Position numbers and translations under genes: made by a program | DNA from: Patescibacteria group bacterium | Lineage (GTDB): Bacteria > Patescibacteriota > Minisyncoccia > Sungbacterales > HO2-52-23 | Length of the DNA: 46,650 bases | Assembly: GCA_038063315.1 (NCBI GenBank) | Contig: JBBTVI010000006.1 | Location: forward strand, 1 to 46,650 | Direction of reading: 5' to 3' | In this document: positions 142-31,208 of the stretch, piece by piece | Layout: the number at the start of each line of letters is the position of its first letter | Numbering within the stretch: the stretch's first letter is position 1 | Notes under the pieces: model-generated | Databases searched by the model: none | Told to the model about the DNA's origin: nothing | The model's input: the letters and a program-made list of their open reading frames with translations, nothing else

Positions 142-855
142 TCATACGTCAGCAGGAAAAAACGTCTTCAAAACATCGGCCATATCCGCGGGCAATTCCG
201 CCTCAAAACGGAAACCCCTCCCGCCTTCCATGCTGAATGAAAGCCCCGCGGCGTGGAGAAGCTGACGCCCCGCGCCCGACGGGCAGCAGACATTTTGCCC
301 GCCGTATAACCTGTCGCAGGCCACCGCATGCCCGATCGCCTTCATATGGACGCGCAATTGATGCATGCGTCCGGTGAGCGGATGGAGTTCCACAAAAGAC
401 AGACCGTCCGCGTCTTTCAAAACCCGGAATTCCGTCCGCGCGGGCCGCTCCCCGCGGATGCGCGCGCCCGCGAGCCCGACCCCTCTAAGGCGTGGATTCC
501 GGGCGTTGCGGCCGATGGCCAAGTCCACCGCCCCTTTTTTGTCTTTGAAAACGCCGCAGCAAAACGCGAGATACGTTTTGCGGACACGCCGGTCCGCAAA
601 TTCTTTCTTGAGCCATCCAAAAGCCGCCGGATTGCGCGCGACCACCATGACGCCGGACGTGTCCCTGTCCAGGCGATGGACTAGACCCGGGCGCGCCGGA
701 TCGTCCCCGATCCCCGCGATATCGGGAAATCGTTCCAATAAAAAATCCGCGAGCGTGGGCTCGCGTATACCGGGACCTCCGTGAACCGTCAGCCCCGCGG
801 GTTTGTTAACGACGATAATCTCGTCGTCCGTATAAATAATTTCGGGAGTAGACAA
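142..855 (-). CDS. RluA/RluD-family pseudouridine synthase
   Basis: Motifs VVNKPAGL, GLVHRLDRDTSG and TGRMHQLRVH. Start is uncertain (TTG 855 or ATG 897); the ORF-track extension to 954 runs into repeat DNA. Confidence 0.92.
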   Translation of the reverse strand: MSTPEIIYTDDEIIVVNKPAGLTVHGGPGIREPTLADFLLERFPDIAGIGDDPARPGLVHRLDRDTSGVMVVARNPAAFGWLKKEFADRRVRKTYLAFCCGVFKDKKGAVDLAIGRNARNPRLRGVGLAGARIRGERPARTEFRVLKDADGLSFVELHPLTGRMHQLRVHMKAIGHAVACDRLYGGQNVCCPSGAGRQLLHAAGLSFSMEGGRGFRFEAELPADMADVLKTFFPADV

Positions 856-859
856 AAAG

Positions 860-887
860 AGTAAAGAGTAGCGAGTATGGAGTAAAG
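860..887. repeat. Degenerate 7-mer tandem array (AGTAAAG-type) x4
   Basis: AGTAAAG AGTAGCG AGTATGG AGTAAAG; complementary to the array at 1073-1093. Confidence 0.75.
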
Positions 888-897
888 AAAAAAACAT

Positions 898-1051
898 GTA
901 ACCCTTCACAGTCCTACCGCGACTGCCGCCATATGCGTCATTGCGAGGAGTCATGCTGCAGGACGACGAAGCAATCCAAAAAAATCATGGATTGCCGCGC
1001 GCCCCCTCGACGGACTCGTGGTCGCTCGCAATGACGGCTATAAGGGATTAC
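898..1051. mobile_element. MITE-like element: imperfect ~14-bp TIRs enclosing family A hairpin (937-1035)
   Basis: GTAACCCTTCACAG ... GTCATTGCGAGG...CTCGCAATGAC ... CTATAAGGGATTAC. Related copies at 1-119, ~3958-4100 and 9820-9963. Confidence 0.65.
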
Positions 1052-1072
1052 TAAAACGCATCGCGCAAAAAT

Positions 1073-1093
1073 CTTTACTCTTTGCTCCTTACT
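1073..1093. repeat. Degenerate 7-mer tandem array (CTTTACT-type) x3, containing the stop codon of the 1089-1487 gene
   Basis: CTTTACT CTTTGCT CCTTACT. Confidence 0.7.
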
Positions 1094-1487
1094 CTCGATT
1101 TTTCACGCTCTGGAAATAATTTTCCCGCACCAAAATCCAGCGCAGCATCCCTTGCGTGAGATGGCGCAGAAGAAAGGCAATAAACACAACCGCGGCCAGG
1201 CTCAAAAATTTCTCGCCAGCCGATGCATGCGTAAACATGGAGACCGCAAATGCCGCGATCCCCTCGGGACGCGCAAAAAAGACCGTCAGCGCATTCTCCG
1301 CGATCCGCTGGACAAAGGCCGCCCGGCCAATCTGAAACAAAAGAAACGTGAGCGCCGCGACCTCGACGATGAGCACCGGCAGGAGCCGCCGGACAAGCCA
1401 CACCCGATAAATTTTCTGGACGATCCGCCCCCGATGTTCGGCCGGAATTATTCGCGGCGCGGATGCCAGTTCTTGTGCTGTGGTCAT
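1089..1487 (-). CDS. Small membrane protein (about 2-3 hydrophobic segments), candidate anti-sigma partner
   Basis: ATGA overlap with the sigma gene stop. Hydrophobic stretches LLPVLIVEVAALTFLLF and FLSLAAVVFIAFLL. Confidence 0.7.
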   Translation of the reverse strand: MTTAQELASAPRIIPAEHRGRIVQKIYRVWLVRRLLPVLIVEVAALTFLLFQIGRAAFVQRIAENALTVFFARPEGIAAFAVSMFTHASAGEKFLSLAAVVFIAFLLRHLTQGMLRWILVRENYFQSVKNRE

Positions 1488-3130: not shown

Positions 3131-3134
3131 AAAA

Positions 3135-7896: not shown

Positions 7897-7897
7897 G

Positions 7898-7932
7898 AAT
7901 AGGCGTTAGAATTTAGGCGTTAGGCGTCAAGG
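7898..7932. repeat. Degenerate 7-mer array (CGTTAGG-type) between the DUF2283 stop and the clpB ATG
   Basis: AATAGG CGTTAGA ATTTAGG CGTTAGG CGTCAAGG. Confidence 0.7.
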
Positions 7933-8579: not shown

Positions 8580-9777
8580 ATAGGGCGTTGAACGCAATCT
8601 TAAAAGCATCAAGAATATCGTCGGTGTCTTCCAAACCCACCGAGACGCGGAGAAGAAACTCCGGAATGCCCATCTCCTTCCAGCACTGGCGGTGCGTCGT
8701 ACCCGCCGGACGACAAATATGCGTCTTTGGCGAGCCCAAACTGACGACCCCCTTGACGAATGTTTCCTTACATAACACATTCACAAATTTCTTCCATACC
8801 GCCGCGCCATCGTGCAGTGTAAAGGATAAAGTTCCTCCGCATCCGTTGGTCAGTTGCAACTCCACTATCTCACGCGCTTCGCCGCGTGCAAGACCGGGAT
8901 AATAGACGCGTTCCACGCGGGGACTTCTCGCCAACATCCGCGCAAGAGTCGCCCCGCTTCTGTTATGCCGGGCCATCCGCAAACCAAACGTATCCAAATG
9001 GCCCGTCATGTCGCGTGAGTCCGCAGGAGACGGAACCGCGCCGAATGTCGCATACGCGCTTCTGATCGCCGCATATTCGCGACGCCGCGTAAATTCTTCG
9101 GAGAAAATTGCAACGCCGCCGATAATGTCCCCGTGGCCATTGAGATACTTGGTTGTGCTGTGAATCGCAATCGGAATCCGGAACTTCTCAATCAGCCGCT
9201 GGTTGTACGGCGTGGCAAACGTACCATCCACAATAGTGATAATCCCGTCTTTCTCCAACAAATCTCCGAAACCCCGAAGGTCGGTCATCTCAAGCAAAGG
9301 ATTGGACGGCGTCTCAATAAAAATGCAACTCGTCTGCGGTTTGAAGTGTGGAGCAATATCCGACAGCGCATAAAATTGCCTGCGGTAAACCGGAATACCA
9401 AGACGCCTGAAATCGCGCGTGAGCAAATCATACGTTCCGGAATACAACACTTCTTGCGCGATAACCTCATCCCGCGCGCCGAGAAATCCTAACAAGCAAC
9501 ACGTGATTGCCGCCATACCCGAAGAAAAAACCAGCGCGGCGGCACCCCCCTCCAACGCGGCCAATTTCTGCTGCAGATCGCGGTGATTGGGATTGTGATC
9601 GGGAAGACGGCCGTACACATGGCCCCCGCCCGCCATCGCTGTCTCAAAATCATCCGCATCATCAAACACCCCGGTTGTCGTCCGAAACGCCGGCAATACT
9701 CCGGCATTTGGCCTGTATGTGACATCATCCCCCGTATGAATCGCACGCGTATCCAGCCGCAAATCTGAAAAATCCAT
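8578..9777 (-). CDS. PLP-dependent Cys/Met metabolism enzyme (cystathionine gamma-lyase/synthase or methionine gamma-lyase family)
   Basis: DTRAIHTG, FSSGMAAI, FIETPSNP, VDGTFATP, HSTTKYLNGHGD (PLP Lys), LLRVSVGLE. Start MDFS at 9777 with GGAG upstream. Confidence 0.9.
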   Translation of the reverse strand: MDFSDLRLDTRAIHTGDDVTYRPNAGVLPAFRTTTGVFDDADDFETAMAGGGHVYGRLPDHNPNHRDLQQKLAALEGGAAALVFSSGMAAITCCLLGFLGARDEVIAQEVLYSGTYDLLTRDFRRLGIPVYRRQFYALSDIAPHFKPQTSCIFIETPSNPLLEMTDLRGFGDLLEKDGIITIVDGTFATPYNQRLIEKFRIPIAIHSTTKYLNGHGDIIGGVAIFSEEFTRRREYAAIRSAYATFGAVPSPADSRDMTGHLDTFGLRMARHNRSGATLARMLARSPRVERVYYPGLARGEAREIVELQLTNGCGGTLSFTLHDGAAVWKKFVNVLCKETFVKGVVSLGSPKTHICRPAGTTHRQCWKEMGIPEFLLRVSVGLEDTDDILDAFKIAFNAL

Positions 9778-9819
9778 TGTCCTGTCTCCTATCCCAAAAA
9801 TTGCCAAAGAACAAAAAAT

Positions 9820-9963
9820 GTAACCCCCTCACAGGCGTCATTGCGAGCGACCCCGAGTCTGCCGAGGGGGGAGCGCGGCAATCCAGGACTTGGATTGCTT
9901 CGTCGTCTGACTCCTCGCAATGACGCATGCAATGGTGATCTTGATGGGGCTGTAAGGGATTAC
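9820..9963. mobile_element. MITE-like element enclosing family A hairpin, copy 5 (9837-9924)
   Basis: GTAACCCCCTCACAG ... CTGTAAGGGATTAC ends around GTCATTGCGAG...CTCGCAATGAC. Confidence 0.7.
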
Positions 9964-9981
9964 TCAAAACGCAAAATCAAA

Positions 9982-10230
9982 TCATTCACCCACCGCCTCG
10001 ACTCTCGTAACTTCAGGAAACTTTTTTTTCAAAAATTGCTCGATTCCCATTTTGAGCGTCAGCTGCGACAGCGGACAGCCGCGGCACATCCCCAGCATCT
10101 TGACCGATACGACGCCATCTTCAAATTTAATAAACTCCAGATCCCCCGCATGCAACGCGAGGGCGGGCCGGATATCGTCTAATGCATTCTTGATCTGCTC
10201 AACACCCTCAACGCTATCTCGAGACATCAT
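9982..10230 (-). CDS. NifU C-terminal / Nfu-type Fe-S carrier
   Basis: IRPALALHAGDLEF...LGMCRGCPLSQLTLKMGIE (CxxC). Confidence 0.9.
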   Translation of the reverse strand: MMSRDSVEGVEQIKNALDDIRPALALHAGDLEFIKFEDGVVSVKMLGMCRGCPLSQLTLKMGIEQFLKKKFPEVTRVEAVGE

Positions 10231-10244
10231 ATGGAATACATCGC

Positions 10245-10320
10245 GAAGTATGGGTATGAACTATGTATTATGGGACTCCGAACCCATAATACATAATACG
10301 AGCCCCATAATTCATATTTC
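10245..10320. repeat. Inverted pair of 7-mer arrays (GAATTAT/ATAATTC-type) filling most of the ferredoxin-nfu spacer
   Basis: Perfect 13-bp IR TATGTATTATGGG (10262-10274) / CCCATAATACATA (10283-10295) with periodic extensions. Confidence 0.8.
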
Positions 10321-10603
10321 ACGGGTATATCTGCTCCCCATTCTCATCGAAAAGCAGTATCGCCCGCGTCGGGCAGCTTTGCGCCGCAAGAAGTATGCTC
10401 TCGTCATCAGCTCCTTTATCGTTATAGACCACGGCTTTGTTTTCGCCGTCCAATTCAAACACGCCCGGCGCGACCGCGATACAAGATGCCGCGCCGATGC
10501 AGAGATTCCGGTCAACGACAATTTTCGCGATCTTTCGCGGTCCGTCTGGCGCCGCCTCCGGTTGTCCCGATGGTTTGTCCGTTTGATCGCTCGTCATTGC
10601 CAT
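10319..10603 (-). CDS. Single-cluster ferredoxin, probably [3Fe-4S]
   Basis: VDRNLCIGAASCIAVAP...AAQSCPTRAI (CxxAxxC...CP). Confidence 0.9.
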   Translation of the reverse strand: MAMTSDQTDKPSGQPEAAPDGPRKIAKIVVDRNLCIGAASCIAVAPGVFELDGENKAVVYNDKGADDESILLAAQSCPTRAILLFDENGEQIYP

Positions 10604-10609
10604 CCTATA

Positions 10610-10966: not shown

Positions 10967-10970
10967 AAAT

Positions 10971-16042: not shown

Positions 16043-16068
16043 GAAAGCAGGCGCAAAACGCGAGAGGC

Positions 16069-16211
16069 GAGTTTGGTGAATAATTCTAAAACAAGCCGTT
16101 TCCTGTCATTCCCGCGCAGGCGGGAATCCAGGCTTTCTCCCTCGTAGAAGCAAGAACCTGGACCACCGCCTTCGCGGGGGTGACACTAAAAAAATATTAT
16201 TCACCAAACTC
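16069..16211. mobile_element. MITE-like element with perfect 16-bp TIRs enclosing family B hairpin (16105-16184)
   Basis: GAGTTTGGTGAATAAT (16069-16084) / ATTATTCACCAAACTC (16196-16211). Core GTCATTCCCGCGCAGGCGGGAATCCAGG...CCTGGACCACCGCCTTCGCGGGGGTGAC. Confidence 0.7.
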
Positions 16212-16238
16212 AAAGGCTATCGCTTTTCATTTTGCGCT

Positions 16239-17733: not shown

Positions 17734-17777
17734 TTGAGTGAAAATTAATTTTTATTGTGGCTACCCCTCCATAATCC

Positions 17778-17786: not shown

Positions 17787-17815
17787 TAAAGGATATAACG
17801 CATGAAACCGCATCT

Positions 17816-18298: not shown

Positions 18299-18310
18299 AA
18301 AAGGCCATCC

Positions 18311-18889: not shown

Positions 18890-18957
18890 AGTTATTTTGC
18901 TGTGAATTATGAAACGCGCCAAGCGGCGTTTCGTGGTTCACGGCGCTTAAAACGAAA

Positions 18958-21900: not shown

Positions 21901-24900
21901 TCTTACGGTCAAACGGGAGGGATATTGAACCACCGTAAATTTGCCGCTAAAGCCGCGCACCGATGGATTTCCGGCGTCAACAACTTCCACCGTATAATCC
22001 GTGCCAAAGGGAAGATCGCCCGGAATTGCGACTTTACGCCAAAACCAGCCGGTGGAATACGCGGTGCCGCCGTAGTAGAGCTGCGGGACATTGGACGCCA
22101 AACTCCGGTAGAAAAATCCTCCTTTCCACAGATTAATGCTGACCGCTTTTGACGGGACATTGACGCCATAGTAATAGACCGGGCCGTCAAAGCCGGCATA
22201 CCAAATGCTACTCGCGTAGGGTTCATACACCTTGATTGCGGACGAGGCGGCGACAATCGAAAACGGGCCATCACTCGTATCGTTTTGCGCGGGCAAGGCA
22301 ACGTCCGACACTTTCATTTTGTAATCCGCGCCTTCCGGAATGTCGTCCGGAATCACCCAGTTGGTGATGAACGCGCCGGTTTCCGCGCTTTGCGCGAACG
22401 ACGGATAAACCGTCCGATACGGCGCGTCGTTTTTCAAAAGCTCGATTTTGACCGCTTTGCTTTTGAGATCAATGGTGGCCCAGCAGACGATGAAGGCCGA
22501 ATTTTTTGAGCCGATCTCGCCGCCGTTCGGCACCACCACGGTCAACGCGGCGGACGGACTAATGGTGAACGCGCGGTCGGACACGTCCCAGTTGCCGGGG
22601 GTATTATCCACATCATTCCAGATAGTCAGCGCTCCCAGTTCATCTTCCGACAGCGCCATGATTTTGTAGCGCCCGGGGCTCACGGTCGTACAGACCGTCC
22701 CGTCCGCGCTGCAGACGGTCTTTACGTTCCAATTGACTGTGCTATTTGGTGCCGAGGAGGTCGCGATCCAGCCGACGATAAACTCACCCGGATCAGACCC
22801 GACCGCGGCGGCCTCTTCCACCAAAACGACATCAACGCGATCCGTGCCGCCGATCCAACTGAGAGTGAAATCAACTCCCTGCACCAGATTCTCTCCGCCG
22901 TTCGGAAAAATAACCGTCACGGGAGTGATCGTCTGAATGAGCAAAAAGGAAACCGCGTTTGATGTTCCGTTCGCATTCGACACCGACACACTGCACGCTG
23001 CGCCGATTTTACACGAGGTCCCGATCGGAACGGTAAACGTCAGGGTCTTTCCGTCTGCGGACGCGAGATTCGTCGCCGCCATCGCACCCGCAAAAGAAAC
23101 GGAGTTTCCCGTCGCGGTAAATCCGGATCCGGTGATTGTCACGACTGTGCCGACTATTCCTTTAATCGGCGCGAGCACAGTGATCACCGGTTTTGGCGGA
23201 GACGCGACGCCGAAAGAAATCGCAAAGTCGTCTCCATTGGCGTTGCCCATGACATCGGCGCACCGCACATAATAGTTGTACGATTTTCCCGTCTCAAATC
23301 CGCTCACGTTTGACGAATGAGTTGTTGACGCCGTTGTCGCAAATGAGAGCGTCATCGAGGAATAACTCGTTCCGGCAGTCAACGCGTATTTGCACGTTGC
23401 GGTTTCATCGGTCGTGAGCGAAAGCGTTGCTTCTTTAGTCGTATACGCCTGCTCGCCCGTCGGCAGACCGCCGAAGCGCGTCGGCGGCGTCTTGTCGGAA
23501 AGGGCCGCACCGGTCCAGAAGGTCGTCGCGTCAACAGGCATAGCGCCATACACATCCAGGCTCAGTGAATCCTGATTAAAGATGTTCCGGCCGGTGTAGA
23601 CAAAGGTGATATATTTTTTCGTGAGATCAAATGCCGGGCCGTCGTAGACAACCGACGTCGTGGTTGCACCCGTCGGCACGGAATAAACATATTTTTTCCA
23701 GTAGGGACGCTGCATATCGCCCCCTCCCTCGACAAAGACGCTCATGCCGTAGGTGTCGTAGAGAGATCCGTTGGGCCAGTTGGTGAGCGTCCAGGTGAAT
23801 GTCGGGGTCTCGGGAGCGAGCGCCTGATCCGCCGGACTCAACACCTGCATCCTGGGCATTGCGTACTTTCGCAGTATTTTCAACGGAGCGCGCGTTTGTC
23901 CTGAAGGGGGAATAATGGTCTCCTGTCCTCCGGCGTCCACTGCGGCGATATAATACTCATAGGTGCCGACGGGATAAAAAGAAGACGGGAAGTTGGTGTT
24001 GCGTCCTATGGACCACGTATCCAGCGTCTTCGTCAAAGGATCAGAATAGCCGCATGTGAAGAAAAGTGTCCAGTCGCCGACACTCCAGCTGCGGCATGTC
24101 GGCAGAGATGGGATAGGAAACGTCACCAACGCCTGAAACGCGCTGTCTCCGGGACGTTTTTCATACAGGCGTAACGACGCGGCAGTCGGGTACACAGACG
24201 GGAGAAAGTAAAAACTCACGTTATCCTGAAACACTCCCGGCGGCCACTTCTCTGTCCATGTGGCGGCGGCGTTCAGATAGCCCACCCTGAACGGCCCGTC
24301 GCTCGCATCCTTTATCGCCGGATCAGTCGCGTCAGCGACTTCTATGGTGAAGCCGGTCTGATTTTGAATTGAGGCGGGCACATTCCACTCAAAAGTGAAT
24401 GTTCCGCTCTCCGTGCCTAATAAGAATTGTCCGGACAATGTGGTGTGGAGTACGCCGTCTTTCAGGAGCCGCACGGATACCGATCTCGAAGCAATGCTCG
24501 CCGTGCTCCATGAAATCTTGACCGCTTCATTAACCGTCAGGAGTTCCCCGCCATTCGGATAAACAACAGTTATCGTGGGTGTTGCAGGAGGCGGAGTAAC
24601 ATTCGGCTCAGGCACAGGAGGTGGCGGAGGAGGTGGAAGGGGTGGTGGGGGTGACGTCGTATCCACGCCCGGGGGAATGAGCAAAAATTCAGTCAGCTTA
24701 AACGGCTTGGCATTGGAGATACCGTTTGCGTTGACGACTTTCACCGGACAGGCCTTTTGTGAGCCCACAGGGCACGGGATATCCGACGTCAAAAGAAAAT
24801 CGATCTGCGTGTTATTGTCATACGATTTGAGACCGGTCGCAACGATTTTTCCGCGCACCATGATGAAATTTTCTTCATCGGTAAATCCTTTGCCGGTGAG

Positions 24901-26034
24901 CGTAACAGTGATGCCGACGGAACCCGACGAGGGCGTTACGTCAGTGATTTTCGGCGGCTTTTTCTTCTCGCCGGCGATCAAAAGCAGATTCAAAACCTCT
25001 TTGGTCTTCTCGTCAATCTCGCCGGTTTCTTTCAATCCGACTTTCCTTTGGAATTTTTTGACGGCCTGCTCGGTTTCGACGCCGTAAAACCCGCTTGCAC
25101 GACCATTGGGATAGATGTCCGGAAACATTCCCAGAAATTCTTGCACTTTCTCAACGTTCTTTCCTGAAGATCCCCGCGTTACGGCCTCGTCAATCTCCAC
25201 ATTGCGATACGGATGGACGCGGGCCTCATCGGTTTCCAACCGTATCGGCCTTTTCGATTCAGCGGTCAGTTCCGCGAGTTTGGCGCGCGTTTTCGGACCC
25301 ACAACGCCGGCCGGTTCAATCCCGTGCTTTTCCTGAAATCGCCGCACTGCGGCGTCCGTCCGCGCTCCGAAATACCCGGTCTCCAATCCTTCGGGATAAA
25401 TATCCGGAAATTGCTTCAGGAATCCCTGCAATTGCCGCACGTCGTCTCCGGATGAACCGAGTCGAAGCGTCCGCTCTAATCGAAGCCCAACCGCTACGTC
25501 CGGAGCTGGCTGCCCGGGCCGCTCACCTTGCGTTGTTGTGCGCAGTTGCAACACTTTGTCTTGCAGGACTCTGATTTTCTCGCGTACGTCTTCAATAATG
25601 ATGGTCTGCTCCTCAATGGAATACGGGGCAATATCGGGCGTGGCGGGTGTCGCCAGCCCCGCAACAGGAGCAGGCGGTGTGACGGCGGATGGCGGCGTGG
25701 AGAGCGAAGGTTCAACCTGCGGTGGCGTCGGAGAAGGTAACGGCGTAGGGGCTGCCTGATACGTCGCAGGCGGCGGAGGCGTCACTTGAATCGAAGGCGG
25801 CGCCAACGTTGGAGCCGGCGGAGGAGCGATGGGCCGTTTTTTTACCTGCCCCGGCGCCTCGTCCGGTTTTGCCGCAAGGAGCGACGCGACCGCCTGCTGA
25901 AGCGACGCCAACTGCGCCTGTAACTGCTGAATCATGTGCGCGTCCGAGTGATCCGCGAATGCGATCACGGGCACAAAAATAACGCTTACAAAAAGAGAAA
26001 GCGCCAATGCAATGGATGAGAAAAATTTTTTCAT
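18958..26034 (-). CDS. Giant secreted surface protein (2358 aa): 2 peptidoglycan-binding, IPT/TIG, PNGGE Ig-like and He_PIG-like domains plus 3 copies of an unknown module
   Basis: Signal peptide ending AFA; LRLGSSGDDVRQLQ...TDAAVRRFQ; VTLTGKGFT; GGLAPYKWSLISGALP; uninterrupted 7-kb ORF. Confidence 0.9.
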   Translation of the reverse strand: MKKFFSSIALALSLFVSVIFVPVIAFADHSDAHMIQQLQAQLASLQQAVASLLAAKPDEAPGQVKKRPIAPPPAPTLAPPSIQVTPPPPATYQAAPTPLPSPTPPQVEPSLSTPPSAVTPPAPVAGLATPATPDIAPYSIEEQTIIIEDVREKIRVLQDKVLQLRTTTQGERPGQPAPDVAVGLRLERTLRLGSSGDDVRQLQGFLKQFPDIYPEGLETGYFGARTDAAVRRFQEKHGIEPAGVVGPKTRAKLAELTAESKRPIRLETDEARVHPYRNVEIDEAVTRGSSGKNVEKVQEFLGMFPDIYPNGRASGFYGVETEQAVKKFQRKVGLKETGEIDEKTKEVLNLLLIAGEKKKPPKITDVTPSSGSVGITVTLTGKGFTDEENFIMVRGKIVATGLKSYDNNTQIDFLLTSDIPCPVGSQKACPVKVVNANGISNAKPFKLTEFLLIPPGVDTTSPPPPLPPPPPPPVPEPNVTPPPATPTITVVYPNGGELLTVNEAVKISWSTASIASRSVSVRLLKDGVLHTTLSGQFLLGTESGTFTFEWNVPASIQNQTGFTIEVADATDPAIKDASDGPFRVGYLNAAATWTEKWPPGVFQDNVSFYFLPSVYPTAASLRLYEKRPGDSAFQALVTFPIPSLPTCRSWSVGDWTLFFTCGYSDPLTKTLDTWSIGRNTNFPSSFYPVGTYEYYIAAVDAGGQETIIPPSGQTRAPLKILRKYAMPRMQVLSPADQALAPETPTFTWTLTNWPNGSLYDTYGMSVFVEGGGDMQRPYWKKYVYSVPTGATTTSVVYDGPAFDLTKKYITFVYTGRNIFNQDSLSLDVYGAMPVDATTFWTGAALSDKTPPTRFGGLPTGEQAYTTKEATLSLTTDETATCKYALTAGTSYSSMTLSFATTASTTHSSNVSGFETGKSYNYYVRCADVMGNANGDDFAISFGVASPPKPVITVLAPIKGIVGTVVTITGSGFTATGNSVSFAGAMAATNLASADGKTLTFTVPIGTSCKIGAACSVSVSNANGTSNAVSFLLIQTITPVTVIFPNGGENLVQGVDFTLSWIGGTDRVDVVLVEEAAAVGSDPGEFIVGWIATSSAPNSTVNWNVKTVCSADGTVCTTVSPGRYKIMALSEDELGALTIWNDVDNTPGNWDVSDRAFTISPSAALTVVVPNGGEIGSKNSAFIVCWATIDLKSKAVKIELLKNDAPYRTVYPSFAQSAETGAFITNWVIPDDIPEGADYKMKVSDVALPAQNDTSDGPFSIVAASSAIKVYEPYASSIWYAGFDGPVYYYGVNVPSKAVSINLWKGGFFYRSLASNVPQLYYGGTAYSTGWFWRKVAIPGDLPFGTDYTVEVVDAGNPSVRGFSGKFTVVQYPSRLTVRGRLFDYLTQVPLATTTIGTWDGSYNWYNNWTNANGEFNITATTSDILLSRGHSFWMHPTGHSYGSFYIYSNAYGLYAYIHFFPFINKGYITFPVSSGEIDMGEIPFWPVVDRSYVISDMPVKYGLNYRNAQTGQSTTNLWTGSQYRHTHDAWKAIPQALDVWVRLEDKPGNVYYSPLLNLPASPGVGSKTLSLFNQTPQWEPYSIDASASYSPQILKVGTPVSGAAYAWNGVAPYTWSMLAGNLPPGVTLSSTGALSGAPTEAGVYDTVFRARDSQQVNGVTRTNTYPYYVPNYSLRFDVRTTEGVQVAAIKVIDPQARVEMYPGSTYTVSWDSFGITGNSVVLDLYQAGRFVRKIAGFAQGAESGRYSYNWLVHQDLPAGNDYYIRISDVNNPAVYGESDAFLILGKQNASWSENSGAKYSPSLSFQYATSSNPGALTFRLYRQNPGETSLTLVGTFASPACYQSISSGKWYLYLSCSSWYPNPQWSLQYSTYVPASEFPAGEYRYEFRAADSAGGEVVLARWMLRALEPTSITYPTAADAPISSSGAPTIRWTIPKDWPPMLEKPYRVVIQEAYTGKQVHQMWGLSAPTDTVGFRTYDGPTLDPTKKYTAHASYRRGVVDSTSAQRTEHMAMSAGTATFWFDQYVPPPPVSISTESLPAAMIWTSYAATLAAAGGLAPYKWSLISGALPQGFYVDSSGRIYGWTSQQGIFKFTVGVTDYLGGAATKELSIEVKPDTGAYWSGGSGSSPTYSQYVRFGYANGKPADVTSFKLYQKKPGDAAFSAAGMFTGVAETCGVNYSPADSLWSLYFNCGTTYRYWQSSLKVASTSSAFPVGEYDYYVAAIGGDGAESAITPILKQFALERTTILSPTEAQSPVASTTLAFEWTVALSGWPSGVSQMPFLVYVMPEGSYSYVYYKWVYSRVGAPTAATTYNGPELDSTKKYVANVAVNTTVFDSVAFAKVSYIAMMDATPRFWITK

Positions 26035-26042
26035 ATACTTCT

Positions 26043-26048
26043 ATTATA
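26043..26048 (-). promoter_or_regulatory. -10 element TATAAT 8 nt upstream of the ATG at 26034
   Basis: Consensus hexamer with near-leaderless spacing. Confidence 0.5.
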
Positions 26049-26091
26049 TGCCACCCCCCCCAACATAAACAGAGAAGGTTTTCCACACCAT

Positions 26092-27330
26092 CTACGCCTT
26101 CAAGATCCGCATCGCTTGTTCAACCCCCTTCCCCAGTCGTTCCACATCCTCCGGCGTATTATAAACCCAGAAACTGACGCGGGCCGTTGCGGGAACGCCG
26201 AGATAATCGTGTAACGGAATGGCGCAGTGATGTCCGGCGCGGATGCAGATATTGTCGCGATCAAGAATCGTCGCAAGATCGTGCGGATGGATGCCGTCAA
26301 TGGCAAAACTGATCACGCCGCTCCGATCCTTCATATCTGACGGGCCGAAGATTTTGATTCCTGGGACGGCGCGTAAAAAATGGAGCGCACGGGACGCAAG
26401 ATCCTCCTCAAGGGCGCGAATCTTCTCAAATCCGATCGTCTGTATGTATCCGATGGCCGCCGCAAGCCCGACGGCTCCTTCACCGTTGGGCGTGCCGCCC
26501 TCCAGACGATCCGGCAAATCCTTCCAACGGATACCGTTCTCCGTCACCTTCGCCACCATTCCCCCGCCACGGATAAACGGTCCAAATCGCTCGAGCAATT
26601 CCTCGCGGCCGTAGAGCACGCCGATACCCATGGGTGCGCCGAGTTTGTAACCGGAAAACGCCAGGACATCGCAGCCGATGTTCTCTACGTCAATCGGGAG
26701 ATGCGCTGCGCTTTGCGCCGCATCAATAAGGAACAAAACGCCGCGGTCACGCAGGAGCCGGGCGATCTCGCGCACCGGATGAATGGACCCAAGCACATTG
26801 GAGACCTGCGCCGCGACAAACAATTTTGTCTGCGGTTTAAGCGCGCGCTCCACGGCCTCAACCGTCAAGAATCCCTCCTCATTCATATCCACCGTATCAA
26901 CGAAGACGCCGCGCTCATCGGCGAGCATCCGCCAGGGCAGCATATTGGAGTGATGCTCGGCGCGCGGAACCAAAATGCGATCTCCGGCTTTTAAGATGCT
27001 CCGTCCGAGAGAGTAGGCCACAAGATTAATGCTCTCGGTGGTGTTCCGTGTAAAAATAATCTCGCGCGTGCTCCGCGCATTGATAAACCGCCGCACGGTC
27101 TCGCGGGCGTCCTCGTATGCCTCGGTGGCCCGGCCCGAGAGCGCATACATGCCGCGATGGACATTGGCGCGCGACGTCTCCCAAAAATTCCGCACCGCGT
27201 CCATCACAACTCCGGGCATCTGGGCGCAGGCCGCGGTATCCAAATAAATCAGGGGCGTCTCCCGCTTTTCAAAATGGGCGAAGATCGGGAAATCCTCTCG
27301 GTAATTTTTAGAACGATGGATGCTTGACAT
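26092..27330 (-). CDS. sufS: SufS-type (class II) cysteine desulfurase
   Basis: LIYLDTAA, FTRNTTESIN, EHHSN, IDAAQS, FSGYKLG, IRAGHHCA. Confidence 0.93.
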   Translation of the reverse strand: MSSIHRSKNYREDFPIFAHFEKRETPLIYLDTAACAQMPGVVMDAVRNFWETSRANVHRGMYALSGRATEAYEDARETVRRFINARSTREIIFTRNTTESINLVAYSLGRSILKAGDRILVPRAEHHSNMLPWRMLADERGVFVDTVDMNEEGFLTVEAVERALKPQTKLFVAAQVSNVLGSIHPVREIARLLRDRGVLFLIDAAQSAAHLPIDVENIGCDVLAFSGYKLGAPMGIGVLYGREELLERFGPFIRGGGMVAKVTENGIRWKDLPDRLEGGTPNGEGAVGLAAAIGYIQTIGFEKIRALEEDLASRALHFLRAVPGIKIFGPSDMKDRSGVISFAIDGIHPHDLATILDRDNICIRAGHHCAIPLHDYLGVPATARVSFWVYNTPEDVERLGKGVEQAMRILKA

Positions 27331-27441
27331 AAAAAGTGTATTTTGCTACTAATATATTCAGATCTTCCCATCTTCCCACAACCGATCTACGCAACGGACC
27401 GACCCTCTGAAAGGGGTCACACAAAAAGAAAGTGGAACCCA

Positions 27442-27852
27442 ATGGCTGCCACGCTTAAGGCCAACGAAATGCCGCAATCCGCGCCGGAAAACACAAGCCA
27501 ACAAACCCATCGTTGCATCGAGACCAAAAGTGTCGATTTTAACGGGGGACAGGACACCATCACATTATCATTATACAGCAATGGAGATATCAAGGCCCGC
27601 CATAGTTGCTGGGAGTCGCATCATGGAATTGGCATCGACATCCCGGAAATGGCTATCCGAAGACTCCGATCAGGATTTCGCCATTACGACAAGCCCCTCC
27701 ATCGCAACATACGTCTTGCATGCACTGCCTGTTTTTGGAGCATAGACGTTGCGCTGTACGCTCCTCTCCTACAAACAACAGGACAAGCCGGAATCCAAGA
27801 TTACGACTTTACTGAACTCAAAGCGGCTCTCTATGCATTGTCAGACCGCTGA
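27442..27852 (+). CDS. Hypothetical protein, antisense between sufD and sufS
   Basis: Fills a ~490-bp gap and contains CTAC. Start uncertain; the 3' end overlaps sufD by 35 nt. Confidence 0.5.
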   Translation: MAATLKANEMPQSAPENTSQQTHRCIETKSVDFNGGQDTITLSLYSNGDIKARHSCWESHHGIGIDIPEMAIRRLRSGFRHYDKPLHRNIRLACTACFWSIDVALYAPLLQTTGQAGIQDYDFTELKAALYALSDR

Positions 27853-28411
27853 GATCTCCAAAAAACCCGTTCAACACGACGCGCTCGGCGTCGTGTTTTT
27901 TCATGCCTCGGCTTTGGAGATAAAAGAGCGTCTCCGGATCAATCCGCCCGATGCTTGAACCATGAGACGCCTTGACCGCGTCGGTCTTTATTTCCAGATA
28001 CGGATAAATTTCCGCGCGCGCTTTTTCTGACAACAAAAGCGCTTTTGCCGAAAGATAGGAATCCGCGCCAATGCCGCCTTTCTTTATATCAAGCAATCCG
28101 CGAAACGTAAATCGCGCCTCATCGTAAAGCGCGGCGCGCGCGGTCACACGAGCATACGTCTCCGGCGCTTCATGCATCACCGTAATATCCATGTCGGTTG
28201 CGTCTTGCCCCTTGCCCAAATATGCAATCACTAAATCGACGCGCGTCCGCGGCGCAATAAGACGAATGGCAAGACGCACTGCGCGAGGTAGTCGTTCCGT
28301 GAAAATCGCGGTCCCGCTCCATTCTTTTCCCGGTTCCGCGAGCACGATTTCCTCATTCCATTCGTCGCCTAAATTTTTAGAATCAATAATCACACCTGAA
28401 TTACGAATCAT
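27818..28411 (-). CDS. sufD: Short SufD (C-terminal beta-helix part)
   Basis: KALLLSEKARAEIYPYLEI...VKASHGSSIGRID...LFYLQSRG. Start ATG 28411 or GTG 28393. Confidence 0.85.
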   Translation of the reverse strand: MIRNSGVIIDSKNLGDEWNEEIVLAEPGKEWSGTAIFTERLPRAVRLAIRLIAPRTRVDLVIAYLGKGQDATDMDITVMHEAPETYARVTARAALYDEARFTFRGLLDIKKGGIGADSYLSAKALLLSEKARAEIYPYLEIKTDAVKASHGSSIGRIDPETLFYLQSRGMKKHDAERVVLNGFFGDLSGLTMHREPL

Positions 28412-28425
28412 AAAGTATGAATTAT
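28398..28425. repeat. 7-mer array (GAATTAT-type) x4 at the sufD start
   Basis: GAATTAC GAATCAT AAAGTAT GAATTAT. Confidence 0.7.
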
Positions 28426-28433
28426 GGGAGAGA

Positions 28434-28605
28434 TATAGCAATGTTAAAACAAAACGTCCCTTTTTCTTCTGTCATTCCCGCATAGGCGGGAATCCAGGTT
28501 TCTCTTTTTGATAAGGCAGAACCTGGACCCCCGCCTTCGCGGGGGTGACAACTAAAAAGAATCTTTATTCTGTAAAAACAGTCGTTTTGTTTTTACAGGG
28601 CTATA
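28434..28605. mobile_element. MITE-like element with TATAGC termini (IS630/Correia-like ends) enclosing family B hairpin (28471-28549)
   Basis: TATAGCAATGTTAAAACAAAACG / CGTTTTGTTTTTACAGGGCTATA (20/23 match). Confidence 0.7.
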
Positions 28606-28635
28606 ATAATAGAGACCAATCTTATCACTTCTTGT

Positions 28636-28670
28636 CCATAATACATAATTCATATTCCATAATTCATCTG
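28636..28670. repeat. 7-mer array (CATAATT-type) x5 abutting the sufB stop
   Basis: CCATAAT ACATAAT TCATATT CCATAAT TCATCTG. Confidence 0.75.
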
Positions 28671-31208
28671 TCACCCCACCGCCCCATCCATCTGCATCTC
28701 GATTAAGCGATTCATCTCCACCGCGTAATCCACCGGCAGTGTCTTGGTGAGCGCTTCAAAAAAACCGGAGACGATCAAAGACGCAGCCTGCGTCTCGGTC
28801 ATGCCCCGCGAGCGGAGATAAAACAATTCTTTGTCCCCGATTTTTGACACCGTCGCCTCATGCTCCATGCGCGTCTCTTCCTCATCTATTTTCAAGGTCG
28901 GATATGTATCAGACCGCGACTGCGGATCGAGAATCAACGCGTCGCACCGCACTGAGAGCCGCGCGTTTTTTGCACCGCGCACCACGCGCGAAAGACCCCG
29001 ATACGAAGTCCGACCGCCGCCGAAAGAAACCGATTTTGAGACGACGTTAGACCGCGTCTCCGGCGCAACATGGATCATTTTCGCGCCCGCATCCTGCACC
29101 TGGCCCGGGCCCGCAAGCGCGACCGAAAGCGTATCCGCGCGCGCCCCGCGTCCGGCCAGAATAACACTCGGATATTTCATCGTAATCTTACTATTGTGCA
29201 CAAGTATGCCATTCGCAATAAAGTTATGAGATCCGCCAATCTCGATATCATAAACATCTTTTTTGCCAATCGGAGTTATCGAGGCCACCCTCACGAATTT
29301 CAAAAGTGGAGTCCGGCTCCCCATCTTCCTGCCACGAATTTTATCAAGATTTTCTCGCAGATTAAGGCAAAGATAATGGGTGGTATATTCTTTCAACCTC
29401 CCTTTGTATAATTTTCGTTCCTTCACGTATGATGAAATTCTCAACGGTTCCAAACCAACCGAGATCATCAGAAGTTTTAACTCCTCCAGCAAGAGCTTAT
29501 TGCAACTGGCGAATATAATCTGACCATATTGAACATTGCCCACCATCTTCGATTGACGCGTGTAACCGTCTGCATCCAAATACCCTTCAATAAAGGCCAT
29601 TTTTTGATCTTCCGGAAGAGAATAAAGCCACGCAGGAATTTTTTTAGTTCTGGCCGTACCAGCAAAACCCATAGAGATCACGAACTCCGCGAAAACCGAC
29701 GACGGTACCGTTACACAAATTCCTTTTGGCTTCGGCACAACGGCGAAAATATCAATCAATAACCTTTCCAATTTGCTTCGCGCCCGATCCCCCGGGGGGA
29801 CGGCGAAGTAAACCCGATTCGGCCTACCCCCACGCGATCGCTCAAGATAACCATCGCCGAGGTATAATCCGAGAAGCCACATCAGTTCTACCGTCGTATA
29901 TTCAGGAATCTTCGGCCATTGTTTTATTCGTTTCCTTTCGCATATAAAATTTATTCGCCGTGGCGTCCCATCATCGGGCAGTTGATCGGCGATTGCAATC
30001 CAATCGCCCGTCTTTCCTGATTGCAAGTTACGCAATGGCTGCCATGAAAGATACTGTAAGCCCGATTGGTAAAAATGCTTCAAAACAAGAAAGGGGTGAT
30101 TATCCGTCGCCTCAATTTCCCGGTGATTTGTCGTGACAAGTTTGAATGCCTCTCTTTGACCCTGGTACAATACCGCATCCACTTTTTGCTTAATTAAACA
30201 CATATTTTCCAAATCAGAAGAATAAATCGAATCGCCCGGCTTCAATTCTTTTATGCTGATAGGGCCCCTAGGGTTTACAAAAATCTTTGCGTTTTCGGTG
30301 AGACATCCCAAATTACAGTCAACCCATTCCACAAACGCTTCCTCCTCGGCGCGCGCGCGTTTCGTCACCAGATTATAGACATTGCGCGACCAATTCTGCA
30401 CCGTGGTGTACCGCACGCGCGCATGTGCCTTGACAATAATCTCGACGACCGCCGCGTGGAGCGAGTCCGTCGTATAGACCGGCGCGGTGCATCCTTCAAG
30501 ATAATGCACGCTCGCCCCCTCATCCGCGATGATCAGTGTCCGCTCAAACTGCCCGAAGTTGGCCGAGTTTATGCGAAAATAGGCCTGAAGGGGCATATCG
30601 ACGACAACGCCCGGCGGTATATAAATGAAGGAGCCGCCGGACCACACTGCGGAGTTGAGCGCGGCAAATTTGTTATCCCCGACGGGAATAATGGTCCCAA
30701 AATACTGGCGCACAAGATCCGGATACTCCCGTACCGCCGTATCCATATCGCAGAAAATTACGCCCTTCTCCGCCAGATGCTCGCGGAGCGCGTGATAGAT
30801 CACGTCCGAATCGTACTGGGCCGCGGCTCCGGCAAAAAACCTCCGCTCGGCTTCCGGAACGCCGAGACGCTCAAAAGTGTTTTTGATATCCTCCGGTACC
30901 TCGTCCCACGATCGCGCGGTCCTGTCCCACGGCCGCGCGTAATAAGTGATTTTTTCAAAATCAATTCTGGACAGATCAGCGCCCCATTCGGGCATTCGCT
31001 TTGCATAAAATACTTTCAACGCATCATGCCGAAACCGCCGCATCCACTCAGGCTCTTTCTTAATCGCCGACATTTCATCAATCAGTTCGGGCGACAACCC
31101 CTGTCTTGCCCGATATTCGGGACGGCGTTTATCATAAAACCCGTACGGATACGCACCCGCGAAATCCGCTGCATTGGCCGAAATCTGAAATGCGCCGTTG
31201 TCCCTCAT
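28671..31208 (-). CDS. sufB: Fe-S assembly scaffold SufB (~474-aa extein) containing an intein
   Basis: FAALNSAVWSGGSF, GQFERTLII, YLEGCTAP, YNLVTKRA, EHEATVSKI. Confidence 0.97.
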   Translation of the reverse strand: MRDNGAFQISANAADFAGAYPYGFYDKRRPEYRARQGLSPELIDEMSAIKKEPEWMRRFRHDALKVFYAKRMPEWGADLSRIDFEKITYYARPWDRTARSWDEVPEDIKNTFERLGVPEAERRFFAGAAAQYDSDVIYHALREHLAEKGVIFCDMDTAVREYPDLVRQYFGTIIPVGDNKFAALNSAVWSGGSFIYIPPGVVVDMPLQAYFRINSANFGQFERTLIIADEGASVHYLEGCTAPVYTTDSLHAAVVEIIVKAHARVRYTTVQNWSRNVYNLVTKRARAEEEAFVEWVDCNLGCLTENAKIFVNPRGPISIKELKPGDSIYSSDLENMCLIKQKVDAVLYQGQREAFKLVTTNHREIEATDNHPFLVLKHFYQSGLQYLSWQPLRNLQSGKTGDWIAIADQLPDDGTPRRINFICERKRIKQWPKIPEYTTVELMWLLGLYLGDGYLERSRGGRPNRVYFAVPPGDRARSKLERLLIDIFAVVPKPKGICVTVPSSVFAEFVISMGFAGTARTKKIPAWLYSLPEDQKMAFIEGYLDADGYTRQSKMVGNVQYGQIIFASCNKLLLEELKLLMISVGLEPLRISSYVKERKLYKGRLKEYTTHYLCLNLRENLDKIRGRKMGSRTPLLKFVRVASITPIGKKDVYDIEIGGSHNFIANGILVHNSKITMKYPSVILAGRGARADTLSVALAGPGQVQDAGAKMIHVAPETRSNVVSKSVSFGGGRTSYRGLSRVVRGAKNARLSVRCDALILDPQSRSDTYPTLKIDEEETRMEHEATVSKIGDKELFYLRSRGMTETQAASLIVSGFFEALTKTLPVDYAVEMNRLIEMQMDGAVG
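29193..30305 (-). mobile_element. Intein (371 aa) with LAGLIDADG homing endonuclease
   Basis: NLG|CLTENAK...ATDNHPFL...WLLGLYLGDG...AFIEGYLDADG...VYDIEIGGSHNFIANGILVHN|SKITMK; visibly more AT-rich than the exteins. Confidence 0.95.

Follow-up and report, generated by a model that had tools for sequence, protein, structure and literature searches.

The Correia/NEMIS elements of Neisseria, REP/REPIN-RAYT elements and cyanobacterial STRRs are small palindromic repeats of intergenic regions, transcribed together with the adjoining genes; RNase III acts on Correia hairpins, and STRRs consist of arrayed heptamers. In the Coxiella burnetii 23S intervening sequence (IVS) a terminal stem of ~28 bp is cleaved mid-stem by RNase III, tandem GACAGAT heptamers, variable in number between strains, stand directly before the S23p ATG, and the element is viewed by its authors as selfish (Warrier et al. 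2016, PMC4990558; this and the other papers are cited from excerpts). The G-rich heptamers of Xanthomonas/Nostoc (GGGAATC / GGGGA(C/T)T) form 70-75 convergent pairs per genome, with four units preferred, mostly between aligned and rarely between divergent ORFs, and their G-rich strand is sense in the 50 bp that follow a stop or antisense in the 50 bp that precede a start (Rehm et al. 2015, PMC4692102). The excerpts of that paper report no link to mobile elements and contain no reference to PF05635 (xcc0516, S23 and intervening each occur 0 times). Direct TAACTGA heptamer repeats occur in marine Beggiatoaceae, some Cyanobacteria and Bacteroidetes (MacGregor 2015, PMC4679880), and PF05635 resembles Avd of phage BPP-1 (4DWL versus 2GSC; PMC10053308).

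An ultra-small groundwater bacterium is host to cassettes related to these rRNA-gene intervening sequences. In the window, the whole 46,650-nt stretch of its DNA that was analysed, four spacers lie between co-oriented minus-strand genes according to Pfam annotation: from a 132-aa gene of unknown family to an RluA-like gene (junction a), from Fer4 to a NifU C-terminal-like gene (b), from a gene of unknown family to a PKD/PG-binding protein (c), and from SufB, which contains an intein, to SufD (d). We consider that these fold-back spacers are probably inserted copies, mostly gene-less, of an IVS-type hairpin cassette whose full-length form holds a PF05635 gene in its loop. The features of the window, including a fifth junction absent from the earlier sequence-only reading, are as follows, where H1 denotes the element family to which the arrays of b and d belong.

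859..887, minus strand: junction a, 3' arm, CTTTACT-type (17/21 matches at lag 7; fold)
1073..1094, minus strand: junction a, 5' arm on the mRNA, GAGTAAG/GAGTAAA-type heptamers (sequence; pairs with 859-887 in the minimum-energy structure, z -5.06)
898..1051, no strand: junction a, nested inserts with an outer GTAACCC..GGGATTAC inverted repeat (sequence)
937-1035, no strand: junction a, inner MITE GTCATTGCGAG..CTCGCAATGAC inside the 898-1051 repeat (sequence)
7897..7926, minus strand: fifth junction, solitary CGCCTAA-type array (lag-7 scan)
10245..10319, minus strand: junction b, bare H1 element, arms 10245-10274 and 10283-10319 with an 8-nt loop (nhmmer, fold)
16043..16068, minus strand: junction c, 3' arm, directly before ATG 16042-16040 (fold)
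16213..16238, minus strand: junction c, 5' arm on the mRNA, AAAGCG-type units, directly after stop 16241-16239 (fold)
16069..16212, no strand: junction c, nested insert, GAGTTTGGTGAATAA..TTATTCACCAAACTC inverted repeat (sequence)
16106-16184, no strand: junction c, insert core, GTCATTCCCGC..GGGGGTGAC (sequence)
28398..28428, minus strand: junction d, 3' arm, degenerate H1 (sequence, gene call, fold)
28636..28670, minus strand: junction d, 5' arm on the mRNA, H1 family (nhmmer E 1.6e-8; fold z -10.69)
28429..28635, no strand: junction d, loop with a further inverted repeat 28442-28455 / 28584-28597 (sequence, fold)
28471-28549, no strand: junction d, loop MITE core, GTCATTCCCGC-type (sequence)

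Sense-strand folding of the complete spacers, each compared with 200 dinucleotide shuffles, gave -93 kcal/mol for junction a (0/200 shuffles as good), -32.1 kcal/mol for b (z -3.59; 1/200), -92 kcal/mol for c (z -7.79; 0/200) and -103.4 kcal/mol for d (0/200), and in all four minimum-energy structures the outermost helix joins bases after the stop to bases before or over the next start. The sequence-only reading had claimed this stop-to-start fold-back, and the shuffle check bears it out, with its junction coordinates correct to within a few bases. In a stricter automatic end-to-end test, which took only the outer 45 nt and our own start calls, z fell below -3 for junction c alone (a -0.70, b -2.49, c -7.64, d -1.96; dE for c -37.7). 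Periodicity is weakest in c, as had been remarked, and lies below the threshold of at least 15/21 matches at lag 7.

The arms sit close to their genes. In junction a the stop of the upstream 132-aa gene (1091-1089) falls within the 5' array, and the RluA-like gene (Pfam PseudoU_synth_2, 3.2e-30) may start at TTG 855-853, the next in-frame candidate after the array, or at ATG 897-895. The bare element of junction b (nhmmer E 7e-3 and 8e-9 for its arms) has the Fer4 stop (10321-10319) 3 nt away on one side and the NifU-like start (10230) 12 nt away on the other. In junction d the 5' arm begins 3 nt past the sufB stop (28673-28671), and the called sufD ATG (28411-28409; SUFBD_core 4e-41) is within the 3' arm, buried in the stem. 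The array of the fifth junction occupies the entire 30-nt stop-to-start spacer. Inverted-repeat elements are present in the loops of a, c and d, which confirms the MITE-like inserts with which all three had been credited. The GTCATTGCGAG-type family has 175-206 copies genome-wide, nested as in junction a at many of them, and the composite insert of c recurs at C51:2986 and C33:18376, its TIR word having 41 matches genome-wide (at most 2 mismatches, both orientations counted).

The 7-nt periodicity is real genome-wide: 113 regions, including 2 runs of N, have at least 15/21 matches at lag 7, as against 9-18 regions at control lags of 4, 5, 8, 10 and 11 and 41-50 at lags of 6, 9 and 12. Of the period-7 arrays outside H1, 40/71 lie inside called ORFs. 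Arrays before starts have more C than G on the sense strand in 23/25 cases and those after stops more G than C in 21/25, and the mRNA of the fifth junction carries the C-rich strand, as this orientation rule predicts. The sequence-only reading was right that the starts at these junctions lack a Shine-Dalgarno sequence, which is nothing special here, as GGAG, GAGG or AGGA is found at -20 to -5 of only 118/868 called genes.

The GAATTAT/GTATTAT arrays of b and d are arms of one dispersed palindromic element of ~75 bp, H1, whose 14-mer CCATAATACATAAT occurs exactly 38 times in the genome. An arm profile detected 119 arms at E<1, forming 46 facing pairs in the 0.99-Mb genome, commonly of 73-77 bp, with 27/119 arms left unpaired under the pairing rule applied. 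Several loops have a common TTCGGA(A/G)TTT core, whose direction with respect to the genes varies, and four copies have an almost identical 29-mer in common. The H1 word has 104 matches in this genome, and the 35 other family genomes have 0-8 each. Co-oriented genes flank 41/45 pairs versus 363/511 spacers of at least 60 nt (binomial p 0.0011), with a median of 2 nt from stop to element and 8 nt from element to start, distances that are approximate at the level of a few nt, as the genes were called with a crude caller of our own. The most abundant MITE lies at median distances of 60.5 nt (stop) and 74.5 nt (start), and 0/122 of its copies are anchored on both sides versus 15/41 for H1. The predicted bias of arm pairs towards stops and starts thus holds genome-wide. 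Junction b had been taken for the empty state, and the bare form is indeed common (loops below 60 nt in 37/46 pairs); larger loops contain 7 nested MITEs versus about 1.5 expected by a rough estimate (Poisson p 0.001), which favours the view of these spacers as landing pads. Direct repeats of at least 3 nt flank 16/45 elements versus 0.40 in controls, giving no target-site duplication above control, and no transposase tied to H1 was found, so we infer the mobility of H1 from its distribution. Contigs aligned to the window, none of which spans these junctions, revealed no presence/absence polymorphism.

One H1 pair (C42:3663-4147) encloses a PF05635 gene (C42:3715-4119; 114 bits) whose start codon is the arm's innermost ATG. 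The closest solved structure to its protein is 2GSC (E 1.3e-19), deposited as XCC0516, which we take from that locus name to be an X. campestris protein. The genome has two PF05635 genes, on contigs C42 and C14. PF05635 is present in 27/36 genomes of the family, and among the 27 usable of 28 family loci, arrays with at least 13/21 matches at lag 7 lie on both sides in 18 and the arm duplex reaches -20 kcal/mol or lower in 24. From 306 relatives across the Patescibacteria 80 loci were kept; the 77 usable ones had at least 14/21 matches at lag 7 upstream in 39 and downstream in 39, versus 0-2 for lags 5, 6, 8, 9 and 10. In family and phylum loci alike, inverted heptamer arrays border PF05635 on either side, adjoining its start codon and its stop, and GAATTAx/GTATTAx-type units, as in H1, are frequent among the 40 phylum loci listed. 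The arms co-vary, a point that the sequence-only reading had proposed to check across relatives: out of 27 candidate 3' arms, a locus's own ranked first as partner in 12 loci and third or better in 20 (Mann-Whitney p 2e-11), and two loci with very similar PF05635 proteins and apparently the same downstream gene show a compensatory change, their arms being TAGCCAACAG/CTGTTGGCTA and TAGCCAATAG/CTATTGGCTA.

Orthologous junctions in relatives are empty: G008 has 9 nt between sufB and sufD and 5 nt between Fer4 and NifU, and G017 has 10 nt between sufB and sufD. Given these 5-10-nt junctions, the hairpin is an insertion rather than a native coupling structure. After Fer4 homologues in metagenomes (68 distinct junctions), 23 spacers were of at most 25 nt and 28 of 60-150 nt, and many of the latter contain hairpins of unrelated heptamers.

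The sequence-only reading had proposed that the stems bring a stop beside the next start for reinitiation, preserving translational coupling across inserted DNA. The tight anchoring, the rarity of Shine-Dalgarno sequences and the co-varying arms would suit such a device, as would the conserved 5' terminal ATG of H1 (A 32, T 37, G 39 of 41) beside a degenerate 3' partner CAT (A 19, T 21 of 41; Fisher p 3e-5), an asymmetry that follows gene direction. However, sense and antisense strands fold equally well (14 versus 19 of 33, Wilcoxon p 0.39; G-U pairs 83 versus 91), which leaves a reinitiation device unsupported; a mini-ORF relay from the first ATG is inconsistent, its ORF often having just 5 codons; the start of junction d is inside the stem; the empty junctions of relatives make the hairpin an addition; and in full-length cassettes the same arms enclose a cargo gene 120-130 codons long. 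We regard coupling as unlikely. Hardly less doubtful is an origin of the arrays in place, by replication slippage or template switching, with neither function nor common descent. Units vary between loci and are homogenised within arrays (in G018 one arm is all GAATTAA and its partner CATAATT, one mismatch per unit), copy number is variable, up to about six GTATTAT-type units at C38:622, heptamers are described as the most frequent class of long repeat in prokaryotes (Mrazek 2007, cited in PMC4679880), and a similar origin has been proposed for long simple-sequence and STRR-like repeats. Slippage probably remodels the arms, but it leaves the cassette unexplained: the 29-mer and loop core recur between copies, the H1 word is concentrated in this one genome, and arrays abut the PF05635 ATG and stop precisely, with lag 7 alone enriched.

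Least probable, and in our view very much so, is that the arrays are regulatory sites such as G-quadruplexes, the proposal made for Xanthomonas, -10-like CATAAT boxes of leaderless mRNAs, or S1/Csp/CsrA-type sites, the proposal made for TAACTGA repeats. The orientation rule agrees with that of Rehm et al. (PMC4692102), and by our own reading CATAAT resembles a -10 box, ending 9-14 nt before the start. Against this, GAATTAT and GTATTAT are without the G-tracts needed for a quadruplex, and units elsewhere (CGCCTAA, CTTGTCT, CTGTTGG and others) are unlike a -10 box and have no common motif, so no single sequence-specific reader fits. A reverse order of events, with PF05635 genes entering hairpin loops that were already there, in the manner of the MITEs, is conceivable.

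Together these data, namely a dispersed family anchored at stops and starts, one gene-bearing copy, the same layout across family and phylum, empty orthologous junctions and co-varying arms, form the direct basis for the inserted hairpin cassette. As only 1/46 H1 pairs bears a gene, and 0/4 junctions in the window, descent from the cassette is suggested by arm similarity for b and d and by architecture for a and c. The cassette would consist of two inverted arms, each of about four 7-nt units, its full form carrying one small loop gene, the PF05635 '23S rRNA intervening-sequence protein', an S23p/Avd-like four-helix bundle. Junction b would be the bare gene-less form, and a, c and d gene-less forms whose loops were later invaded by other palindromic MITEs, the insertion sites being former gaps of 5-10 nt from stop to next start inside operons. 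The elements may be selfish passengers that spread without target-site duplication, with the PF05635 protein possibly acting in trans to help them. For RNA processing sites, the other option of the sequence-only reading, the Coxiella 23S IVS, alike in architecture, offers an experimental precedent (PMC4990558). The genome encodes an RNase III (135.7 bits), and by analogy with 23S rRNA IVSs the enzyme probably cuts the 25-35-bp stem in the operon transcript, which we infer to be the likeliest RNA-level effect of the hairpins. Such a cut would excise the loop with its nested cargo and part the two cistrons, leaving the downstream gene a short G-poor leader in a genome that seldom uses Shine-Dalgarno sequences. 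The polarity, G/U-rich arm first and C/A-rich arm second, is probably retained because an ATG-rich arm just before a start codon would be harmful.

The sequence-only reading knew of no named system with this layout; in this it was mistaken, as S23p/PF05635 IVS cassettes and the convergent heptamers of Xanthomonas share it (PMC4692102). Like the Xanthomonas/Nostoc repeats, the arrays have 7-nt units, aligned-ORF spacers, a strand rule and inverted pairs, whereas the H1 units have no G-tract and the quadruplex reading is thus inapplicable (PMC4692102). As with TAACTGA repeats, arrays stand a few nt before starts, over the expected ribosome-binding site, in Shine-Dalgarno-poor genomes; those repeats have one fixed unit and are direct, with one indirect set, in contrast to the inverted pairs, many units and cargo gene seen here (PMC4679880). 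PF05635 belongs to the same fold family as the DGR accessory protein Avd (PMC10053308), but its hairpin-cassette context is not a DGR layout, and the single RVT_1 match of the genome is on C47, a contig without a PF05635 gene. Unlike Correia/NEMIS, REP/REPIN-RAYT and STRR elements, the arms are tandem heptamers rather than a fixed TIR and target-site duplication is absent; a palindrome other than H1 flanks the genome's RAYT-like gene. The 23S IVS lies in helix 45 of a 23S rRNA gene (PMC4990558), whereas the cassette and 45 gene-less relatives here lie between operon protein genes, with H1 amplified within one 1-Mb genome, hosting nested MITEs and presumed by analogy to be cleaved. With the IVSs of Coxiella burnetii and Leptospira that carry an S23p/PF05635 ORF, the cassette shares the inverted-repeat stem, the heptamers at the ATG and the gene in the loop (PMC4990558).

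Each whole spacer was folded on the mRNA strand and compared with 200 dinucleotide-preserving shuffles. At each of the four junctions the genes are on the minus strand, hence the stop is at the higher coordinate and the start at the lower. The resulting z-scores were -5.06 for junction a (unknown gene to RluA-like), -3.59 for b (Fer4 to NifU-like), -7.79 for c (unknown gene to PKD/PG-binding) and -10.69 for d (sufB to sufD). As the sequence-only reading had proposed, all four spacers fold back to bring the stop beside the next start: the outermost helix of each MFE structure pairs stop-adjacent bases with bases next to or over the start codon. A long terminal stem (about 25 bp or more), as in cassettes of the intervening-sequence (IVS) type, was found at every junction. 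Gene boundaries were taken from a home-made caller, and for the RluA-like gene the start could be either TTG 855 or ATG 897. We also applied a stricter automatic end-to-end duplex test, which looked only at the outer 45 nt of each spacer and relied on the home-made gene calls. This returned z < -3 in 47/337 co-oriented spacers of 60-600 nt, in 5/63 convergent spacers and in 1/69 divergent spacers; junction c alone of the four passes it.

The genome comprises 993,010 bases in 54 contigs with 53% G+C, the window being one whole contig (C6), and the genomes of its relatives span 0.5-1.2 Mb. DNA runs containing the window are labelled as groundwater or aquifer metagenomes. An Rfam search of the window gave no family at gathering score. 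Two giant minus-strand ORFs, 18958-26034 (2358 codons) and 34204-44346 (about 3300-3380 codons), jointly fill more than a third of the contig. Period-7 arrays are a genome-level property: 113 regions genome-wide, including two N runs, have at least 15/21 matches at lag 7, against 9-18 regions at the other lags that are not multiples of three. An insensitive, strict-scoring search for inverted partners of the arrays outside the H1 family described below placed 8/71 above control. A crude caller put 40 of these 71 arrays inside ORFs (for example ACCAACT, CCCACTA and GAGTAAA arrays of contigs C50 and C51), which may represent genuine in-frame inserts or errors of gene calling.

The arrays of junctions b and d belong to one dispersed palindromic element, termed H1 here, of which they form the arms. 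Junctions a and c use other units (GAGTAAA-type and AAAGCG-type) and were assigned to the same class as b and d on architecture alone. The 14-mer CCATAATACATAAT occurs exactly 38 times in the genome, and an arm profile detected 119 arms at E<1, giving 46 facing H1 pairs and leaving 27 arms unpaired by the pairing rule used. The usual element is 73-77 bp long with a loop of 10-13 nt and, on either strand, a G/T-rich, ATG-bearing arm always comes first and a C/A-rich arm second. H1 arms are C-poor and not self-complementary, and their consensus has one GGGG run and a GG at the end. A TTCGGA(A/G)TTT core recurs in several loops and can face either way with respect to the genes; this recurrence points to copying rather than independent origin. 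The H1 word gave 104 hits in this genome; the 35 other genomes from the family had 0-8 apiece.

Placement of H1 is closely tied to gene ends. Pairs lie between co-oriented genes in 41/45 cases, compared with 363/511 among spacers at least 60 nt long (p 0.0011). The median distance from the upstream stop to the element is 2 nt, the stop being the TGA of H1's own first ATGA or CTGA in seven cases, and that from the element to the next start is 8 nt. Anchoring on both sides was seen in 15/41 H1 elements but in 0/122 copies of the commonest MITE (GTCATTGCGAG type). These figures bear out, genome-wide, the earlier expectation that array pairs are anchored at the stop and start codons of co-oriented genes. 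All four junctions and the H1 pairs sit between protein-coding genes and not in a 23S rRNA helix.

The H1 hairpin is an insertion. In relatives from sister genera, the sufB-sufD gap measures 10 nt (G017) and 9 nt (G008), and the Fer4-NifU gap 5 nt (G008), with no element at any of these sites; in a third relative, G018, a different hairpin of ACGAATC-type follows Fer4. Among 68 distinct junctions after Fer4 homologues on metagenome contigs, 23 are of 25 nt or less and 28 of 60-150 nt, and many of the longer spacers consist of hairpins made from unrelated heptamers. The family's other genera have inverted heptamer arrays of their own, and in 7/9 array pairs inspected there a long ORF ends or starts within about 20 nt on both sides. 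The sufB gene itself (28671-31208, minus strand) is 845 codons long because it is interrupted by a LAGLIDADG-bearing intein (Intein_splicing, 5.6e-15; LAGLIDADG_3, 8.7e-9); the G017 and G018 homologues align without it, residues 20-301 and 673-845 being contiguous. In the neighbouring sufD-sufS gap (27331-27817, 487 nt) we saw no called gene, evident MITE or operon-strand open frame; the same junction is short in G017 and G008.

Target-site duplication was not evident, direct repeats of at least 3 nt flanking 16/45 H1 pairs (control fraction 0.40) and those of at least 4 nt flanking 3/45 (control fraction 0.09). Among the transposase families searched, no autonomous element with matching ends and a transposase was found, and the sole ORF-bearing H1 copy encodes PF05635, the "23S rRNA intervening-sequence protein" (S23p/Avd-like). 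PF05635 is not a known transposase. A RAYT-like Y1 transposase gene is present at G000:C27:46004-46744 (1255-1995 of the extracted locus L014; NF047646, 34.5 bits against a cut-off of 80). About 10 genomic sites carry the TTACGAAG..CTTCGTAA palindrome found on its flanks, where copies of the TTACGAAGTTAAGCTTCGTAA palindrome lie in or near the 5' end of the gene (one) and just downstream (two). We rejected RAYT as the mobiliser of H1, the flanking palindrome being a different repeat. Nor are H1 arms short palindromes in themselves, as REP/REPIN units are. A DGR context was likewise discarded: the sole RVT_1 match is at C47:337-960, and the PF05635 genes are on C42 and C14.

The PF05635 profile has two matches in this genome. 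One, an ORF at C42:3715-4119 (114 bits), falls exactly within the loop (421 nt) of the H1 pair C42:3663-4147, and its start is the innermost ATG of the arm and forms the arm's last unit; among solved structures the closest is 2GSC (deposited as XCC0516; E 1.3e-19). The other (C14:4889-5386, minus strand, 107 bits) has no obvious heptamer arms and adjoins a 1314-codon gene. Only this C42 pair, 1 of the 46, holds PF05635 in its loop. Of the window junctions, b has a loop of 8 nt, and a, c and d have MITEs in theirs; because all four are without PF05635, we file them as ORF-less derivatives rather than full members of the cassette class.

PF05635 is present in 27/36 genomes of the same taxonomic family, from which 28 loci were examined and 27 were usable. 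Period-7 arrays lie on both sides of the ORF in 18/27 loci, and the arms pair at -20 kcal/mol or better in 24/27. The heptamer differs by locus, and a locus's own 3' arm was the best partner among the 27 in 12 loci and among the top three in 20 (p 2e-11). Compensatory change runs through the units of two loci (..CCAACAG/CTGTTGG.. versus ..CCAATAG/CTATTGG..) that encode very similar PF05635 proteins and apparently share the same downstream gene. In some relatives the two arms of a heptamer array pair are made of different unit variants throughout, as at L047 13091-13172 (G018; GAATTAA versus the complement of GAATTAT) and L048 15144-15232 (G039; GTATTAT versus CTTGATA). Such stems contain one mismatch or G-U pair at regular 7-nt intervals, a pattern suggesting that each arm homogenises its units without regard to the other arm. 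In 77 kb of a further relative, G001 (L036-L039), lag-9 arrays were also common (14 regions, with 17 at lag 7).

We extended the comparison to the phylum by scanning one genome per species with a 4-sequence PF05635 alignment as query, which gave 306 relatives. Of these, 80 loci were examined and 77 were usable, with labels across Patescibacteria and some others. At least 14/21 matches at lag 7 were found upstream in 39/77 loci and downstream in 39/77; lags of 5, 6, 8, 9 and 10 gave 0-2, and upstream alone the other lags gave 0-1. In these loci tandem heptamers stand directly upstream of the cargo start, as in an IVS cassette. Many among the 40 loci listed have GAATTAx- or GTATTAx-type units, as in H1.

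The loops of junctions a, c and d contain MITE-like elements from two abundant families. The commonest MITE, a GTCATTGCGAG..CTCGCAATGAC palindrome, has about 175-206 copies, roughly 2% of the 1-Mb genome. Its median distances to gene ends are about 60 and 75 nt, and copies are often nested in a GTAACCCCTCACAG..CTGTGAGGGGTTAC repeat or in one another. Two examples in the window are:

937-1035, palindromic GTCATTGCGAG..CTCGCAATGAC MITE
9830-9925, palindromic GTCATTGCGAG..CTCGCAATGAC MITE

H1 loops contain seven MITEs (six H1 pairs and junction d) against about 1.5 by a rough proportional estimate (p 0.001). This excess lends some support to the earlier suggestion that the spacers are landing pads, but may reflect tolerance of insertion and not targeting. 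In four groundwater runs, bins with repeat copies (about 9860-9925, 16100-16190 and 28470-28550) far exceed the contig depth of their neighbours, the highest depth, about 1200, being in the bin that holds a GTCATTCCCGC-type copy near 16100. The high depth indicates that these repeats are probably common to many organisms in those groundwaters. Over 9500-29400, contigs of the four DNA runs are short, low-depth pieces that do not span the junctions, together with chimeric joints between copies of repeats; no presence/absence polymorphism was seen among them.

The sequence-only reading had further proposed that the stems preserve termination-reinitiation coupling, and of this we found no sign. 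Among 33 short H1 elements, with a mean sense-strand MFE of -30.8 kcal/mol, the sense strand folded more stably in 14, the antisense strand in 19 (Wilcoxon p 0.39), with 83 and 91 G-U pairs, respectively; the structure is thus not specific to the mRNA strand. The start codon of junction d is buried in the stem. We also rejected a mini-ORF relay running from reinitiation at H1's first ATG to termination within the 3' arm, since this ORF often has only five codons and a stop of variable position. It is true that no clear Shine-Dalgarno sequence precedes these starts, but this is the rule of the genome, where only 118/868 genes have one. H1 does show an asymmetry in the direction of the genes, the 5' terminal ATG being kept (T in 37/41) and the 3' CAT degenerate (A in 19/41; p 3e-5). 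In our view it reflects the downstream initiation region adapting locally, but it is compatible with coupling too.

Given the precedent of the Coxiella IVS and the presence of an RNase III gene in this genome (C23:3972-4364), we infer that operon transcripts may be cut by RNase III at the hairpin stems, which would discard the loop with anything nested inside it. These observations allow us to formulate a wider reading, which we consider improbable as a whole, in which heptamer-armed PF05635 cassettes form one class of "RNA-neutralised" selfish inserts in many bacterial phyla. The cassettes could settle both in rRNA helices, as classical IVSs, and in operon stop-start gaps because RNase III would excise the hairpin from whatever transcript carries it. 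It would fall to the PF05635 protein to recognise its own heptamer arms and to help the cassettes spread, acting in trans on gene-less copies as well. Remains of such cassettes would make up the unexplained heptamer repeats of Xanthomonas, cyanobacteria (STRR) and Patescibacteria, and the loops would be tolerated landing sites where further MITEs pile up.

If true, this would link 23S rRNA IVSs and their S23p gene, the intergenic heptamer repeats of several phyla and the standalone Avd relatives, all three loose ends being testable within one system. Layered selfish palindromes would then account for a large part of the non-coding sequence in a streamlined 1-Mb genome, and many Patescibacteria operons would be predicted to be cut into monocistronic pieces at hairpins. 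For annotation, the reading would draw attention to spurious ORFs and wrong start codons arising from the arrays.

Our literature search, which covered main texts, turned up no account of such cassettes in Patescibacteria or between protein genes. Known systems share parts of the layout. As described by MacGregor 2015 (PMC4679880), TAACTGA arrays lie just upstream of starts. Rehm et al. 2015 (PMC4692102) report G-rich Xanthomonas heptamers between aligned ORFs, with four units per array preferred, strand polarity at stops and starts, and 70-75 convergent pairs per genome; a link to PF05635 is absent from that paper. The 7-nt units, the approximately four units per array, the aligned ORFs and the stop/start polarity described there recur here, the polarity rule holding in 23/25 and 21/25 arrays, but the G-tract in every unit, with its quadruplex potential, is lacking from the H1 arm consensus. 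A further parallel is the Coxiella IVS, which according to PMC4990558 has a 28-bp terminal stem and tandem GACAGAT heptamers just before the S23p ATG; its unit number varies among strains, and RNase III cuts it mid-stem. As described there, its layout is that of the cassettes reported here, with the difference that the Coxiella IVS resides in 23S rRNA and these cassettes between protein-coding genes.
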